Assembly (NCBI GenBank): GCA_934433135.1
Contig: CAKRZO010000003.1
Coordinates: forward strand, 113,511-177,510
Direction: 5' to 3'
Source: an uncultured Acetatifactor sp.
GTDB lineage: Bacteria; Bacillota; Clostridia; Lachnospirales; Lachnospiraceae
Length of the DNA stretch: 64,000 bases
This document shows, piece after piece, positions 1,846 through 64,000 of this stretch (positions are counted from its first letter, which is position 1; every line of letters starts with the position of its first letter). The notes under the pieces are model-generated. The model did not search any database, was not told the DNA's origin, and worked only from the letters and a program-made list of their open reading frames with translations. A program made the position numbers and the translations under genes.

Positions 1846-2048
1846 TGATATCAGGGTCAAAAGGTCAAAAAGCCGTTCGTGCTTGCACGATTAGGCTTTT
1901 GAACTTGGGACCCGTCAAACATGAGGAAGTAGCGATTTACGCAGTAAATCAGCGGATTCCGAATGTTTTAGAATTGCGGGAGCTGCTTTGCAGCGGAGCA
2001 ATTCGTGATATCAAATGATGGGCAAAATACCTTTTGACCCTCATATCA
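1846..2048 (+). mobile_element. MITE copy 1 (203 bp, 20-bp TIRs, 5-bp TSD TAAAA)
   Basis: TIRs are TGATATCAGGGTCAAAAGGT and ACCTTTTGACCCTCATATCA. Flanked by TAAAA at 1841-1845 and 2049-2053. No ORF inside. Internal nested hairpins. Confidence 0.8.
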
Positions 2049-3715: not shown

Positions 3716-5797
3716 ATGGAATCAAATTCATTAAGAGGTGTCCGTCCCATGCAATCTTCCAAGCAGTCTTTTCCGCACTTTCCCCATTCCGGATCCATCA
3801 GAGCCGTACTGGCTGCCGGACTGCTCTTTCTGGCTGCCATCCCCTGTATTTTATTTCTGACTTTTCAGGGAAATCGGCAAGCAAACCGGAAAGAACGAAA
3901 TTTTGACAAGACCTGCGAGGATCTGTTCCGGGAAGAAATGACCTCCAATACCCTGAATATGCATTATTCCCTGGCCTGTCCCGAAGCTTTCGGAATTCAG
4001 GATTATAGGGTGCTTCTTCCGGCATATCGGTCGGGCAACCGGAAGGGAACTCTCGTACAGACCGAGAATCTGCTGGCAAAATTCCGGAATTTTTCAGAAG
4101 ATTCCGAGAACTCCTTTTCCGAAAAAAAGTCCGCCCCTTCCGAAAAGCTTTCCTCCTCCCGGCAGGATGCTCTGGAATTATTTTTGGAATACATGGAGAA
4201 CTCGCTTTCTCTAAGCGCTTTTTCTTATCTGAATGACCCGCTCTCTCCTTCTTCCGGCATGCAGTCCCAGCTTCCCATCCTTTTGGCGGAATATACCTTC
4301 CGCACCCGCAGGGATGTGGAAGATTATCTGCATTTGCTGGAACAGACGGATACCTATTTCGAAGGACTGCTTTGTTTTGAACAGGAAAAAGCCCGCGCCG
4401 GCTGCCCTGTATCCGGGAAAAGCCTTGAAAAAGTCATAGAACAGTGTGATACGATTCTGACAAAGGAAGCCCTGGAAGAAGAAACCCATTTTCTGCAGAC
4501 GACTTTTCTGGAACGATTAAAAAAACTGGAAGAGGCAGGTGAAATTACCGCAGCGGATTTTCCGGCCTACCTTGCGCAGAACAACCGGCTTTTGAAAACC
4601 GTTCTGCTCCCTGCCTACGAAGCGCTCGGAGACGGTCTTCTTGTCTTAAAAGACGAGACAATTCTCCCAAAAGGTCTGGCTTCTTATCCGGGTGGCCGAA
4701 CCTACTATGAGCACCTGCTGTTCTCCTCTACCGGTTCCGCCCGTTCCATTTCCGAAATCCGTACCATGCTTACCGGCAAAATGCAGGATGAATACGTTGC
4801 TTTAAAAGAAATTTTGACCGACGCTCCCGCCCTTTTGCAGCTGGATTACGAAAAGGAACTGGAAAAAGAATTTCCCTTTACTTCTCCGGAAGAAATCCTG
4901 GCGGATCTGCAGCAAAGAATGGCTGCGGACTTTCCGGCACTTCCCGGAAGAAACACTTCTCCACCCGCCTTGGAAAGTGTTGCCTTGGGCGGTGTTGCAA
5001 AAGTTTCCGCAAATGCAGCCCCGGCTTCCGGCGAAAACGTCTCTTTCGCCGGCCGATTCCCGAAAGCAGCCGTAAAACCGGTTTCCCCAAGCCTGCAGGA
5101 TTTTACAGCGCCTGCCTTTTACTTAACGCCGCCTTTAGACGATACTTCGTCTAATGTGATTTATATTAATGAAAAAAAGACGCCCTCCCGGCTGGAGCTG
5201 TATACCACCCTTGCCCATGAGGGCTATCCCGGACATCTGTATCAGTCTGTCTATTATAACCTGAAGCAGAAATACATAGAAAATTTCGCCCCTTCCTGCC
5301 TTCTCCGGGAACTTTTATGGTACGGAGGCTATCAGGAGGGCTGGGCCTTGTACGTAGAAAACATTTCCTATGACTATGCTTCCGCTATCATGGAATCTAA
5401 GGAAAACTCTCTGCTTGCAGCGGCCATCCAATTGGAAAAGCACAACCGCTGCCTGCAATTGTGCCTTTATTCCCTTATGGATATTATGATTCATTATGAA
5501 AATGCCGACCTTGCTTCCATCGGCAGTCTGTTAAAAAATTTCGGCATTACCGGTGAGGCCGCCGCAGACCGCATTTATACTTATATTGCGGAAGAGCCCT
5601 GTAACTATCTGAAATACTACCTGGGATATCTGGAGATTCTGGAGTGTAAAGAAAAAGCGGAAGCGCTGTGGAAGGAAAATTATTCCGACCTTGCTTTTCA
5701 TACCTTTTTTCTGGAAACCGGCCCCTGCAGTTTTCCTTTTCTGCAAAAAAAGCTGGAAGAGACGCGCTATTCCTCTGCTCCCGCCTCTTCTAAGTAG
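3716..5797 (+). CDS. DUF885-like protein with N-terminal TM anchor (putative metallopeptidase-like)
   Basis: HEGYPGHLYQ motif resembles the DUF885 HExxPGHH signature. N-terminal hydrophobic segment. The probable start is ATG 3749, which has RBS AAGAGGTG. The 3' end overlaps the next gene convergently by 31 bp. Confidence 0.5.
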   Translation: MESNSLRGVRPMQSSKQSFPHFPHSGSIRAVLAAGLLFLAAIPCILFLTFQGNRQANRKERNFDKTCEDLFREEMTSNTLNMHYSLACPEAFGIQDYRVLLPAYRSGNRKGTLVQTENLLAKFRNFSEDSENSFSEKKSAPSEKLSSSRQDALELFLEYMENSLSLSAFSYLNDPLSPSSGMQSQLPILLAEYTFRTRRDVEDYLHLLEQTDTYFEGLLCFEQEKARAGCPVSGKSLEKVIEQCDTILTKEALEEETHFLQTTFLERLKKLEEAGEITAADFPAYLAQNNRLLKTVLLPAYEALGDGLLVLKDETILPKGLASYPGGRTYYEHLLFSSTGSARSISEIRTMLTGKMQDEYVALKEILTDAPALLQLDYEKELEKEFPFTSPEEILADLQQRMAADFPALPGRNTSPPALESVALGGVAKVSANAAPASGENVSFAGRFPKAAVKPVSPSLQDFTAPAFYLTPPLDDTSSNVIYINEKKTPSRLELYTTLAHEGYPGHLYQSVYYNLKQKYIENFAPSCLLRELLWYGGYQEGWALYVENISYDYASAIMESKENSLLAAAIQLEKHNRCLQLCLYSLMDIMIHYENADLASIGSLLKNFGITGEAAADRIYTYIAEEPCNYLKYYLGYLEILECKEKAEALWKENYSDLAFHTFFLETGPCSFPFLQKKLEETRYSSAPASSK

Positions 5798-23170: not shown

Positions 23171-23317
23171 GGAATAATGTATTCCAAACCCTGTGTAACA
23201 CTACCTTACTTCTTATCGCTTCCTCTATTCTATCTTCTGTCTCCCCAAAAAGTCAATAGCATACCGGTTTCTCAATAAAGATTTCAGATAAAGGGGCACT
23301 GTACACATGCAATGTCA

Positions 23318-23520
23318 TGATATCAGGGTCAAAAGGTCGAAAAGCCGTTCGTGCTTGCACGATGAGGCTTTTGACCTTGGGACCCGTCAAACATGAGGAA
23401 GTAGCGATTTACGCAGTAAATCAGCGGATTCCGAATGTTTTAGAATTGCGGGAGCTGCTTTGCAGCGGAGCAATTCGTGATATCAAATGAGGGGCAAAAT
23501 ACCTTTTGACCCTCATATCA
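23318..23520 (+). mobile_element. MITE copy 2 (203 bp, about 98% identical to copy 1, TSD TGTCA)
   Basis: Same TIRs as copy 1. Flanking TGTCA at 23313-23317 and 23521-23525. Confidence 0.8.
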
Positions 23521-23656
23521 TGTCATTTAGTTAAGGGTTAAACCCAAATCTTTCAAAAAAATGGAATCCTGTTTATCTCTGCCACAAACAACCTGCACCA
23601 CCTCCTCAAAATGGGTATAAAAATACCACCGGTCTGTTGACTGGTGGTGTCTACTC

Positions 23657-49456: not shown

Positions 49457-51273
49457 GAGTGCAGCAAATTCTCCCCCAGTCCCAGTATCACAAACATGGC
49501 GGATCCGTTGAGAATCTGCTGGAAGCTGACCATATTATGTACCAGATAGACAAGTATTGCGGCGGCACAGGCAGCGGTATAAAGGAGCTCTTCTCTTCGT
49601 AAAAAACCTTTCATCCAGCGGATGATGGCGCTGATCTGGGCTCCCGCAAAACCCAGGAAACCAAGCAGACCGGTCTGTACAAGAAGGGTAATCCATTCAT
49701 TGTGCGCATTGGTCAGTCTCACATTTTTTTCTTTAGGCCAGACAGAATAAACCAGATCCTGCAGCTTCTGCGAGGCATCCTGTGCAATGTATTCTCCCAT
49801 ACTATCCGAACCTACTCCGAATAATTTTCGGAAAAAGCCCTGTTCCGCAAAAGCCTGTAGCCCGGCCATCCAGGTAACTCCTCTCCGGCTTCCCCATTCT
49901 TTGGAGAATGTAAAAACCGGATACTTTGACAAAAAGCCGATACTGCCGGGATCTTTGGTGTTTTTTACAATCAGCAGGACAAAAAACATTGCGGCCAAAA
50001 ACAGCCCCAATGCCAGGATGCGGCAAACACCTCGAAGGAAACGAAGCGGATAATATGCCTTTTTCTTCCATACGATCAACAGGATCTGCAGAATCAGAAC
50101 CGGCAGCAACAAAAAGAAAGGAAGATAACTGAATGTGAAAAGATTCACCGCCGCCTCTTCATACGTAAATCTCCCCGGCAGACAGGTTCTTAAGAGGAAA
50201 GTAAACAGACAGGCGGCCAAAAAGTCCCCTGCAATACCGCACAGCGCCTGCATTCGTTCAGGTTTGCGCACCGCAATGAAAAGCAGCAAAATCCCGCCTG
50301 CAGCCAGCGCAAGATAAGCACTGCTGCTGCCGTTGGTGACAAGCGCCGCAAAGGCAAGGAACAGATACAGATGCCACATCCACAGCTTCCGACTACTTTT
50401 GGAACCCCTCCTATCCTTGCTGTTGTCATTCTCTTCTCTGTGCTCCGAAACAGGAGTATCCATTCCCACCACATAGAAGGCTGCGGCAAAAATCGGCAGA
50501 ATCATATAGCCGCAGTACCAGTTAATATTGCCGATAAAGGAAATAAACTGAGGATTCCCCGCTGTTTTCATGGGAACGGGATACCAGCCAAAGCGATTGC
50601 AGTACCCCAGGAAAAAAAGAAGACTCGTTACCGGCAAAAAAAGAGACACCATACCTCCCTTCCACCGAAAGCATCGGGAAATCAGGAAATAACTTCCCAC
50701 AAAAACCATCTGGGTATACCATCCCAGCCCCCATCTGCTGCTGCCCATCCACGCGGTATCGGGATAAGCGGAAAAAAGCGCAGAAACCGTCACGGCAAAA
50801 GCGTAGAGTAGCACAAAACAATCCGTTACGGAAAACCGCCTGCTGATCTTTATCCGGAAGCTTTCCTCCTTCTGCCCACGTCCGCGCAGTTTAAGCCGGG
50901 AAAATCCGCAGGCAGCGGCCCGAACCAAAACCGCCGGAATCAGGAAGCACAAAAAGATTCCGGTTGCCTGCATAAAAAAGCGTACCTTGTCCGAACCGAT
51001 CTTCTGGTAATCCAGGCGGTTGTACAAGGGAAGCGCCGCAATGACAAAAACCAGATAAAGGTCCGTTAAATACTCCAGGATCTTTCCGGAAATCTTTCTC
51101 ATCGCCGACTCCTTCCGCCCCTGTATCTGATCCCGGATTCTTTCCTGCATTTGATTCTGTATCGGATTTCGTATTTGCCCCTGCGCTTCCTCCTGCACTT
51201 GTTCCTGCATTCTATCCTGCGCCTGATTCTGTATTTTATCCTGCCTTCTTTCTTCCTGCGTTGTATCCATCAT
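49441..51273 (-). CDS. O-antigen ligase/polymerase-like (Wzy_C family) polytopic membrane protein
   Basis: More than 10 TM segments. The real start is probably Met58 (ATG 51102, RBS GGAAGGAG). The upstream Gln-rich 57 codons derive from degenerate 15-bp repeats and are probably non-coding. Confidence 0.6.
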   Translation of the reverse strand: MMDTTQEERRQDKIQNQAQDRMQEQVQEEAQGQIRNPIQNQMQERIRDQIQGRKESAMRKISGKILEYLTDLYLVFVIAALPLYNRLDYQKIGSDKVRFFMQATGIFLCFLIPAVLVRAAACGFSRLKLRGRGQKEESFRIKISRRFSVTDCFVLLYAFAVTVSALFSAYPDTAWMGSSRWGLGWYTQMVFVGSYFLISRCFRWKGGMVSLFLPVTSLLFFLGYCNRFGWYPVPMKTAGNPQFISFIGNINWYCGYMILPIFAAAFYVVGMDTPVSEHREENDNSKDRRGSKSSRKLWMWHLYLFLAFAALVTNGSSSAYLALAAGGILLLFIAVRKPERMQALCGIAGDFLAACLFTFLLRTCLPGRFTYEEAAVNLFTFSYLPFFLLLPVLILQILLIVWKKKAYYPLRFLRGVCRILALGLFLAAMFFVLLIVKNTKDPGSIGFLSKYPVFTFSKEWGSRRGVTWMAGLQAFAEQGFFRKLFGVGSDSMGEYIAQDASQKLQDLVYSVWPKEKNVRLTNAHNEWITLLVQTGLLGFLGFAGAQISAIIRWMKGFLRREELLYTAACAAAILVYLVHNMVSFQQILNGSAMFVILGLGENLLHSKNIK

Positions 51274-51334
51274 GTATTTAATTCTCCGTTCTACTGACCT
51301 TTTGACGTCAGCAGGCTATGATGAACTTCTTCAT

Positions 51335-51368
51335 GTTTGACCTTTTGACCCAGGTATCAGGTTATGTA
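51335..51368. mobile_element. Solo-end fragment of the MITE family (TTTGACCTTTTGACCCAGGTATCAGG)
   Basis: Matches the reverse complement of the MITE 5' TIR (GACCTTTTGACCCTGATATCA). A further partial GACCTTTTGAC lies at about 51295. Confidence 0.45.
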
Positions 51369-63045: not shown

Positions 63046-63217
63046 TGTGATGCCAGGCGGATTGCTCCGCGCTCTGCGCTCCCGCAATCCTACAAACATT
63101 CGGATTCCGCTGATTTGCTTTGCAAATCGCTCCATCCTCATGTTTGGGCGGGTCTCAAACTCATAAGCCTCCTCATGCAAGCATGATCGGCTTATGGAGC
63201 TTTCGACCCTGGCATCA
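63046..63217 (-). mobile_element. Diverged MITE-family copy 3 (about 172 bp) in the 5' leader of the L,D-transpeptidase gene
   Basis: Colinear with the 203-bp MITE. Five hairpins are preserved by compensatory substitutions. Its TIRs are GTGATGCCAGGG and CCCTGGCATCAC. It overlaps the ansA stop codon. Confidence 0.6.
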
Positions 63218-64000
63218 CATGATGTCGTAATTAATGCGGCTGTAGAAGAGAGCCTGAATTTCGGGGAAGCTTAAGTCTTTTTGCGCCAGAATCCACATCA
63301 TCTTGGTAAATACGGCTTCAAAATTCATATCATAAGCTTCCAGATAAGGGAATCTGCCTTTCAGCTGGCGGCCTACTTCGTAGGTGGTTAAGCTGCTGCC
63401 CTCATAGATTACCTGTGTGGTCATGACGACTACTTTAGAGCCTGCCGGGTATTTTTTCATCTGTGCATCCAGATCGGAAAAAAGACTATCCGGAATGCCA
63501 CCCACACCGAAGCTCTCTATCACAATACAATCATATTCCCGAAACAGCGTTTCCAAAACAGCAGGGCGGATTCCCGGCGTCAGTTTCAGAGCAAACACCC
63601 GGGGACTCATTTCATGATAAAAATGTAATGGTCCCGTCCTTTCCTCTCCGGGGATATAGCGTAAGATCTTTCCATGCTGCATAACCGCCAGATTCGGAAA
63701 GTTGATACTGGAAAAAGCATGGTAACTGAAGCTCATAATTTTCTTGGCTCTGGTTCCGGCCAGCACTTTTCCGTCAAAAATAAGGCAGACTCCTACAGAA
63801 TGGGGATCCGCCGCATAACAGATGCTGTCATACAGATTCCTTTTGGCATCTGTAATTTCCACCTGTATGGGCTGCTGCGAACCGGTTAAGATAATCGGCT
63901 TGTCCGGATTCTGAATCAGATAAGAAAGCGCCGCTGCGGTATAGGCCATGGTATCCGTTCCGTGGCAGATGACGAATCCGTCGTATTTTTCATAATTTTC
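63215..64000 (-). CDS. ansA: L-asparaginase, type I (partial; continues past window end)
   Basis: The reading frame is open through ...ICHGTDTMAYTAAALS, the asparaginase active-site region. The ORF-track start at Met is artefactual. Confidence 0.75.
   Translation of the reverse strand, partial: ENYEKYDGFVICHGTDTMAYTAAALSYLIQNPDKPIILTGSQQPIQVEITDAKRNLYDSICYAADPHSVGVCLIFDGKVLAGTRAKKIMSFSYHAFSSINFPNLAVMQHGKILRYIPGEERTGPLHFYHEMSPRVFALKLTPGIRPAVLETLFREYDCIVIESFGVGGIPDSLFSDLDAQMKKYPAGSKVVVMTTQVIYEGSSLTTYEVGRQLKGRFPYLEAYDMNFEAVFTKMMWILAQKDLSFPEIQALFYSRINYDIM

Follow-up and report, generated by a model that had tools for sequence, protein, structure and literature searches.

What kind of element lies between the asparaginase gene (ansA) and the L,D-transpeptidase gene near the end of a 64,000-nucleotide stretch of an uncultured Acetatifactor sp. 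(Lachnospiraceae; GenBank assembly GCA_934433135.1, contig CAKRZO010000003.1, positions 113,511 to 177,510), which is designated the window in the following? On the minus strand of positions 63046-63217, this stretch carries a diverged third copy (copy 3) of a 203-bp repeat that is present twice elsewhere in the window (copies 1 and 2). An earlier interpretation, made from the letters of the DNA (the sequence-only reading), had described the repeat as a MITE (miniature inverted-repeat transposable element) with a conserved multi-hairpin structure and had offered two candidates, a mobile structured noncoding RNA or hairpins needed for the transposition mechanism. The explanation that we consider very probable is that the element is a member of the Clostridiales-1 RNA family (RF01699), that its long form transposes, and that the folded junction is cargo, which would act in cis as part of read-through RNA.

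Identity and fold of the flagged element

A comparison with Rfam, proposed as a check in the sequence-only reading, returned RF01699 at 125-137 bits. The scan of the whole window with Rfam 15 gave exactly three matches, all to this family, with scores of 137.4 bits for copy 3 (E-value 1.9e-31), 128.9 bits for copy 2 (23318-23485), and 125.1 bits for copy 1 (1846-2013), the gathering threshold being 48 bits, and all three matches span model positions 1-166 of 166. The flagged element is a Clostridiales-1 RNA and belongs to an already known family; the conserved multi-hairpin structure under selection that had been postulated is present and corresponds to this curated Rfam entry. RF01699 is a four-way junction of about 170 nt, which is composed of a closing stem (P1) and the hairpins P2, P3, and P4, each of them containing conserved purine-rich internal loops. 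The motif was described as a four-stem structure with significant covariation that is common in the human gut, and it was classed as a probable RNA and not as a riboswitch or a cis-regulatory element (Weinberg et al. 2010, Genome Biol 11:R31, PMC2864571). Rfam types it as 'Gene; sRNA' (small RNA) with unknown function. A full-text search of the searchable literature for 'Clostridiales-1' and 'RF01699' revealed neither an assigned function nor a link to transposons, and a literature search for MITEs in Lachnospiraceae found nothing.

In a BLAST comparison with the window, the minus strand of 63058-63217 aligns with 1846-2005 and 23318-23477 at 80-81% identity. The claim that the third copy is colinear with the 203-bp repeat holds at about 80% identity over the first 168 nt of the latter; the final 35 nt, i.e. 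the tail hairpin and the right inverted repeat, are missing from copy 3. Its parts are as follows:

63046-63219, minus strand: copy 3, a tail-less Clostridiales-1 unit including the extended closing stem (Rfam match 63048-63217, 137.4 bits; minimum free energy (MFE) fold)
63210-63219, minus strand: 5' strand of P1, located within the 12-nt inverted repeat TGTGATGCCAGG (63208-63219; self inverted match and fold)
63150-63209, minus strand: P2, a long hairpin with a GCUUGC apical loop (Rfam alignment and fold; pairs 19/58, 24/54, and 34/43 compensatory relative to copies 1 and 2)
63093-63146, minus strand: P3, a hairpin with GA/GA and GGA/GGA internal loops (Rfam alignment and fold; pairs 84/113 and 95/101 compensatory)
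63059-63090, minus strand: P4, a hairpin with a GGGA/GGA internal loop (Rfam alignment and fold; pair 129/160 compensatory, apical stem rebuilt)
63046-63055, minus strand: 3' strand of P1 (self inverted match and fold)

The minus strand of 63046-63219 runs from TGTGATGCCAGG to CCTGGCATCACA, the two strands of the closing stem. The predicted MFE fold of the copy 3 RNA (-90.2 kcal/mol, z = -8.9) is exactly the Rfam four-way junction, and that of copy 2 (-92.9 kcal/mol) consists of the junction plus the tail hairpin. In the long form, the tail hairpin and a long-range pairing of the ends are alternative folds of similar energy.

When the Rfam structure is mapped on the three copies, all five paired changes listed in the sequence-only reading prove to be real. 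In copy 3, CGTGC/GCACG is replaced by CATGC/GCATG (columns 34/43, GC to AU), AAAAGCC/GGCTTTT by ATAAGCC/GGCTTAT (columns 24/54, AU to UA), GAATTGC/GCAATTC by GGATTGC/GCAATCC (columns 129/160, AU to GC), and GATTTAC-gca-GTAAATC by GATTTGC-aaa-GCAAATC (columns 95/101, AU to GC), while GCTGC-ttt-GCAGC has become the shorter, rebuilt hairpin GCGC-aga-GCGC. For the GATTTAC hairpin, the change is correct and the loop had been given with an extra g, as gcag; a literal search for GATTTACgcagGTAAATC was empty because the true loop is gca. Four further two-sided changes are located at 5/168 and 6/167 in the closing stem P1, at 19/58, and at 84/113. In the window copies alone, eight pairs are altered on both sides and still paired, compared to 0-2 in slid controls, in which the pairing partners were shifted by 1-3 columns. 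The description as five covarying helices is right with respect to covariation but not with respect to their number, as the segments concerned are parts of P2, P3, and P4 plus the closing stem P1.

With a covariance model built from the window copies, about 100 full copies were found. In the alignment of 100 copies to this model, 92.3% of the cells are paired (32-40% in slid controls), two-sided changes occur at 54 of the 60 pairs with up to four pair types per position, and the covariation score is 0.54 (0.04-0.07 in the controls). An alignment of this type is fitted to the structure, and the count was therefore repeated on a plain, structure-blind MAFFT alignment of the 46 closest copies with the copy 3 fold as structure. 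Here, 91.8% of the cells are paired (controls 30-41%) and 49 of the 62 pairs show two-sided changes, with a score of 0.30 compared to 0.03-0.075. Diverged copies with a wholly different P1 (TGAAAGT..., AAAGCCC..., ATAAGCT...) still score 90-128 bits to RF01699. The covariation comes from many lineages and not from two, and the fold is kept by compensatory substitution across them.

Apparent compensatory double substitutions are known to result from template switching in DNA palindromes, and in an element as rich in inverted repeats as this one the paired changes might have arisen without structural selection, either by template switching in quasi-palindromes or by gene conversion between repeat arms. 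We judge this to be highly improbable. Template switching perfects palindromes, whereas here the GA/GA, GGA/GGA, and GGGA/GGA loops, the bulges, and the apical loops are kept over deep divergence; in addition, individual positions show up to four pair types in different lineages, and the two strands differ strongly in the stability of their folds.

The fold is specific for one strand. The sense RNA folds more stably than the antisense RNA in 92 of 95 copies, on average by 9.8 kcal/mol, and in copy 3 the values are -90.2 and -77.1 kcal/mol, respectively. The asymmetry originates from the conserved GA/GA, GGA/GGA, and GGGA/GGA internal loops, the GCUUGC loop, and some G-U pairs, and these asymmetric features are kept across the deepest splits among the copies. 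The count of G-U pairs (116) versus A-C mismatches (77) points in the same direction, the folding energy being by far the clearer strand test.

The 203-bp form as a miniature transposon and the second chassis

Copies 1 and 2 differ from each other at only four positions and possess the tail that is absent from copy 3:

1846-2048, plus strand: copy 1, long-form MITE of 203 bp (core 1846-2013; tail hairpin and right inverted repeat 2014-2048; RF01699, 125.1 bits)
1841-1845, no strand: left target-site duplication of copy 1, TAAAA (flank reading)
2049-2053, no strand: right target-site duplication of copy 1, TAAAA (flank reading)
23318-23520, plus strand: copy 2, long-form MITE of 203 bp (core 23318-23485; tail 23486-23520; RF01699, 128.9 bits)
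23313-23317, no strand: left target-site duplication of copy 2, TGTCA (flank reading)
23521-23525, no strand: right target-site duplication of copy 2, TGTCA (flank reading)

Both copies have TG...CA ends and terminal inverted repeats matching at 19 of 21 positions; the end sequence of this long form is TGATRYNRGKGTCAAAAGG, and the inverted repeat of copy 1, ATGATATCAGGGTCAAAAGGT / ACCTTTTGACCCTCATATCAT, is 95% complementary. The tail of about 35 nt, which is present in many copies, forms a hairpin, in the 3' half of which the 5' end of the element recurs as an inverted repeat, e.g. TGATATCAGGGTCAAAAGGT / ACCTTTTGACCCTCATATCA. The neighbor gene of copy 1 was looked up in public assemblies, which led to contigs of the same species with flanks that are 99% identical (loci outside the window are cited here by their L numbers). 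Five of these (L120, L121, L122, L125, and L126) show the precise empty site, ...AAAATATAAAATTACATC..., with a single TAAAA (reading ...ATATAAAATTAC... / CCTGTAAAATATAAAATTACATC); copy 1 is present in L123 and L129, and the contig of L124 stops within its first bases. The 203-bp form is a non-autonomous transposon consisting of the core plus the 35-nt tail hairpin, and copies 1 and 2 are miniature transposons that transposed recently and bear the folded core. As a label for them, the term MITE is well founded, given the inverted repeats and target duplications of both and the empty site of copy 1 in sister strains. For the flagged copy 3, which has neither tail nor target duplication, the term needs to be qualified. 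The idea that copies 1 and 2, as direct repeats 21.5 kb apart, border a mobile island was rejected, since separate duplications flank the two copies and copy 2 occurs without copy 1 in sample ERZ4568013.

For a broader view of the ends, every element bounded by the end motif was collected, including those at 120 further metagenome loci; this approach replaced a strict finder of terminal inverted repeats plus target-site duplications (minimum repeat length 10 bp, one mismatch allowed), which was too stringent. Of the 68 distinct elements with inverted repeats at their ends, 40 show flanks that repeat exactly over at least 5 bp, compared to 3.3% when flanks are mismatched. The length of the repeat is 5 bp in 32, 6 bp in seven, and 8 bp in one of them, and the 5-bp duplications follow the consensus T-W-W-W-A, with T first in 32/32 and A fifth in 30/32. 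A 5-bp T-N-N-N-A duplication with TGAT...ATCA ends cannot be distinguished by sequence from a 3-bp duplication with ATGAT...ATCAT ends, because the bases beside TGAT...ATCA are nearly always A and T and both alternatives give identical sequences. Element sizes cluster at 180-220 bp, and fifteen mini-elements of 38-130 bp have kept both ends and have lost the core partly or wholly. About 40% of the otherwise intact long-form elements are without matching flank repeats and retain the flanking A and T (e.g. L019, L101, L113, L183); recombination between copies that swaps flanks, or adjacent or nested insertions, could account for the mismatch. In L101, one TGAT...ATCA element is directly followed by another.

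TG...CA termini together with short duplications are the signature of retroviral-integrase-like DDE transposases. The long form would be moved in trans by such an enzyme of the TG...CA class (IS3/IS2, Mu, Tn7, or Tn402-like enzymes).

The core is carried by two unrelated MITE chassis. The units of L059, L061, and L074 measure about 295 bp, enclose an RF01699 core (118-128 bits) between the ends GTAACTGTTCAG ... CTGAATAGTTAC, and have 7-8-bp duplications on either side (TTATTTT, TACACTAT, and TCATATTC). The same ends also bound many short elements that contain no core. Two unrelated end sets and differing duplication lengths argue that the junction would be cargo rather than part of the transposition machinery. 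This bears directly on the second candidate of the sequence-only reading, hairpins needed for the transposition mechanism. In this view, the hairpins would be required as single-stranded DNA, as in IS200/IS605-type elements or integron attC sites, and the covariation would reflect selection for transposability. A fold that is specific for one strand, a P1 stem that joins both ends, and a structure that is kept while the sequence varies, as in attC sites, would agree with such a role, and some diverged copies have TTTAC just upstream and ...GTTTAC downstream, recalling the TTAC target of IS608. These TTTAC flanks are, however, inexact repeats. Moreover, inverted repeats and target duplications are hallmarks of DDE cut-and-paste or copy-and-paste transposition and not of HUH single-strand transposons, one and the same core is found in two chassis with 5-bp versus 7-8-bp duplications, mini-elements without any core still show duplications, and no TnpA, TnpB, or integrase gene is associated with the 119 loci listed. 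A requirement of the hairpins for transposition is therefore improbable in our estimation, the same core in two chassis with different ends and duplication lengths making it the less likely of the two candidates; the mobile structured noncoding RNA is the better supported one.

The TTTAC flanks belong to a subfamily with a 'TGAAAG' P1 (L036, L050, L066, L069, L098:3996-4156, L111), in which TTTAC is often found 2-3 nt upstream of P1 and which shows no inverted repeats and no exact duplication; common to its members is a 3' module in which CATGGAAGTTTAY follows a small GC hairpin. An IS200/IS605-like origin suggested by these flanks was discarded, since the flanks are inexact, tnpA and tnpB are missing, and duplications and inverted repeats are present elsewhere.

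A further, distinct and abundant family comprises short elements (56-200 bp) with GTAACWGTTCAG inverted repeats at their ends, sometimes reduced to the 28-bp palindrome GTAACTGTTCAGAACCATGAACAGTTAC; in L059, L061, and L074, it is these ends that surround the Clostridiales-1 core with its 7-8-bp duplications. The following members were recorded:

L020:2989-3133, L090:6754-6897, L099:3604-3805, L118:5781-5841, and L049:5705-5760: family members with GTAACWGTTCAG ends
L074:1781-1888 and L074:2094-2223: two family members in L074
1386-1397 of the window: a single end of this family

Copy 3 locus, genomic neighbors, and expression

At its own locus, copy 3 is an older resident. Its first three bases are the TGA stop codon of the asparaginase gene (63217-63215; the open reading frame (ORF) ends at 63215; the Pfam assignment as asparaginase was made in sister strains), and the start codon of the YkuD (L,D-transpeptidase) gene follows 46-80 nt downstream on the same strand, so that both statements of the sequence-only reading, namely that the copy supplies the ansA stop codon and that it precedes an L,D-transpeptidase gene, are borne out. 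There is no target duplication, and the terminal repeats are limited to the 12-bp P1 stem. In every sampled strain, an element is present at this locus, asparaginase ends on its first TGA, and YkuD follows. The intergenic region between the two genes contains one, two, or three partly repeated units, depending on the strain; the window and L135 have one unit, and in some strains the first tandem unit has a different P2 sequence. The multiple units of sister strains are located as follows:

L130:2699-3097, L131:2733-3097, and L136:2494-2969: two or three tandem, partly truncated units at the copy 3 locus

As copy 3 is fixed, varies in the number of tandem units, and has neither tail nor duplication, it is an old resident that changes by tandem gain and loss and not a recent insertion. 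Near-perfect tandem duplications of 1.8-2.5 copies with periods of 150-178 nt also occur in other Lachnospiraceae (L049:1-377, L070:7257-7613, L053:3206-3527).

Since the YkuD start codon follows on the same strand after 46-80 nt, copy 3 might be taken for a dedicated cis-regulatory leader of this gene, such as a riboswitch or attenuator. This reading is close to refuted: the genes next to family members are unrelated and occur in either orientation, copies 1 and 2 run antisense to the gene on each side, the tandem copy number at the locus differs between strains, and no terminator or anti-terminator element follows copy 3. A consensus scan of the copy 3 region predicted no promoter-like site, and the single terminator-like site near copy 3 is on the opposite strand, inside the downstream gene.

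A pattern scan with one genome per species yielded at least 119 loci. Among the matches listed, nearly all genuine loci are from Lachnospiraceae (Blautia, Agathobacter, Roseburia, Muricomes, Acetatifactor, Butyrivibrio, Lachnoanaerobaculum, Hungatella), and genuine copies are found almost wholly in Lachnospiraceae genomes and gut metagenomes. The window of 64 kb contains three full copies and one fragment, a density which suggests many copies per genome, and well over 100 further copies are present in other genomes and metagenomes. The fragment is described as follows:

51296-51359, minus strand: degenerate fourth fragment, in which the left end TGATACCTGGGTCAAAAGGTC is joined to the start of P3 and P2 is deleted (left-end search and sequence reading; below the Rfam threshold)

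It is intergenic and located upstream of an ORF starting near 51273. In line with a high-copy repeat that fragments assemblies, the contig k141_155134 (21.6 kb) spans exactly the stretch from copy 1 to copy 2; metagenome contigs of the window species end inside the element (L123, L124, L129, and L141-L143).

The genes flanking the listed loci are both on the strand of the element in 33 cases and both on the opposite strand in 18; the gene downstream shares the strand of the element in 52 cases and is on the other strand in 32. The median distance to the neighboring gene is about 80 nt, and copies often abut stop codons or lie in leaders. Clustering of the 709 ORFs from the 119 loci listed revealed no enriched protein family; the search for an associated protein partner gave only clusters of large generic paralogue families and no transposase or other partner. 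In L106 (minus strand; 4941-5098 and 5129-5383), a Clostridiales-1 copy is located 30 nt downstream of a T-box leader (RF00230, 99.9 bits) and thus within a 5' leader that is regulated. Phage and plasmid collections contain the element only rarely. A phage or plasmid origin was dismissed, as only unannotated gut-virome fragments, one core-less plasmid mini-element, and one genuine copy among 17 IMG/VR pattern matches were obtained. The plasmid mini-element (L148:3977-4036, Agathobacter rectalis plasmid NZ_CP143948.1) is about 57 bp long and consists of a left-end remnant and an intact tail hairpin; it starts within the last codons of a tetracycline-resistance gene of the TetM/TetW family and runs past the gene end at 3992.

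With respect to expression, the junction would be selected as RNA derived from read-through of neighboring genes, because the 5' end of the type-A RNA is the transposon end and no promoter can travel along. For the host transcript, it may then be a cis-acting module for processing, stability, or protein binding, as has been proposed for bcr1, ERIC, BOX, and Correia elements. A different view would be that of a free-standing gene for a trans-acting sRNA, which has its own promoter and distant targets or protein binding and for which mobilization by MITEs is incidental. The sRNA label in Rfam and the published scoring of the motif as a probable RNA without a cis-regulatory role (Weinberg et al. 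2010, PMC2864571) agree with it, and so do the strand-specific fold, the tolerance of both orientations relative to neighbors, and the conserved purine-rich internal loops and GCUUGC loop, which resemble protein or RNA contact sites. The coincidence of RNA 5' end and transposon end in the type-A MITE leaves no room for a traveling promoter, however, and the consensus scan detected neither a promoter-like site upstream of copy 3 nor a terminator-like site on the same strand after it. Three full copies and one fragment per 64 kb would be an unusual density for a trans-acting sRNA, and the frequent location of copies at stop codons or within leaders also speaks against this view, which we regard as unlikely.

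Several points weigh against read-through cargo moved by a transposase in trans. A partner transposase with matching ends was not found in about 240 loci covering about 1.7 Mb. The search used the left-end 21-mer with up to three mismatches, two scans of viral contigs, and a metagenome scan with the right-end form, and also sought inverted end pairs 0.5-6 kb apart; the only candidate for a partner insertion sequence (L252) turned out to be a false positive, and the scans otherwise gave only MITEs and deletion derivatives. Diverged 'short' copies are mostly without inverted repeats or duplications (1/68 has them). The sense bias is only about 1.8:1, so that many copies would be transcribed in antisense if they depended on read-through. 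For a functional RNA, a G-U excess of only about 1.5- to 2-fold relative to A-C is weak, and the copies are phylogenetically related, so that the figure of 92/95 and the shuffle controls overstate independence. Finally, the status as an RNA would derive solely from the strand asymmetry and the Rfam classification. If the junction is indeed cargo, strand-specific structural selection would imply an activity at the RNA level that benefits the element or the host. The more general notion, that Clostridiales-1 is a structured RNA module spreading in Lachnospiraceae as cargo of at least two unrelated miniature transposons, is put forward here tentatively, at slightly less than an even chance.

Relation to Clostridiales-1 and to other repeat systems

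The structure has been known since 2010 (PMC2864571), and the sequence-only reading was a correct rediscovery of an orphan RNA motif, not the description of a new class. The window copies share with Clostridiales-1 (RF01699, PMC2864571) the four-stem architecture, the GCUUGC loop, the GGA-type internal loops, the occurrence in Clostridiales and in the human gut, and the absence of any constant neighbor gene, and they show no structural difference from the published family. The published and searchable accounts treat the motif as an orphan sRNA candidate and mention neither inverted repeats, target duplications, and the 35-nt tail hairpin nor insertion polymorphism and tandem copy-number variation. 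The evidence for mobility appears to be new as far as the searchable literature shows. For annotation, all three loci are RF01699, and copies 1 and 2 are additionally MITE insertions. The motif ranks among the most common orphan structured RNAs of human-gut Lachnospiraceae, and its mobility provides handles on a 15-year-old question of function, namely an exact empty site, defined ends and target, and two chassis. For strain-level analysis, it is relevant that the element breaks metagenome assemblies and varies in tandem number.

Palindrome-associated elements of the IS200/IS605 type and omega or right-end RNAs are likewise structured, strand-specific, present in multiple copies, and linked to mobile DNA. 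IS200/IS605-derived elements, however, lack inverted repeats and duplications, their insertion takes place 3' of a fixed tetra- or pentanucleotide, and they originate from TnpA- or TnpB-encoding elements, whereas the element described here has duplications and inverted repeats, and no TnpA or TnpB genes are located nearby at the 119 loci listed. ERIC/IRU, Correia/NEMIS, BOX, and RUP resemble it in being small, noncoding, multi-copy, intergenic, and able to fold as RNA, and they are thought to work via read-through transcripts (in part Delihas 2011, PMC3184786). They are mostly single long hairpins or modular boxes, in contrast to the four-way junction with conserved non-canonical loops and much deeper covariation found here.

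The closest analogue is probably bcr1 of the Bacillus cereus group, a repeat of about 155 bp with 5-bp direct repeats and a strain-variable location, for which transcription and compensatory changes have been described (reviewed in Delihas 2011, PMC3184786; Okstad 2004; Klevan 2007). Both are interspersed Firmicutes repeats of about 155-200 bp with 5-bp direct repeats, the location of which differs between close strains, and in both a multi-stem RNA fold is kept by compensatory changes. They differ in that sequence, fold, and host family are unrelated and that transcription has been shown for bcr1, whereas the present element is known from sequence; the core of the latter, unlike bcr1, is also carried by a second chassis with different ends.

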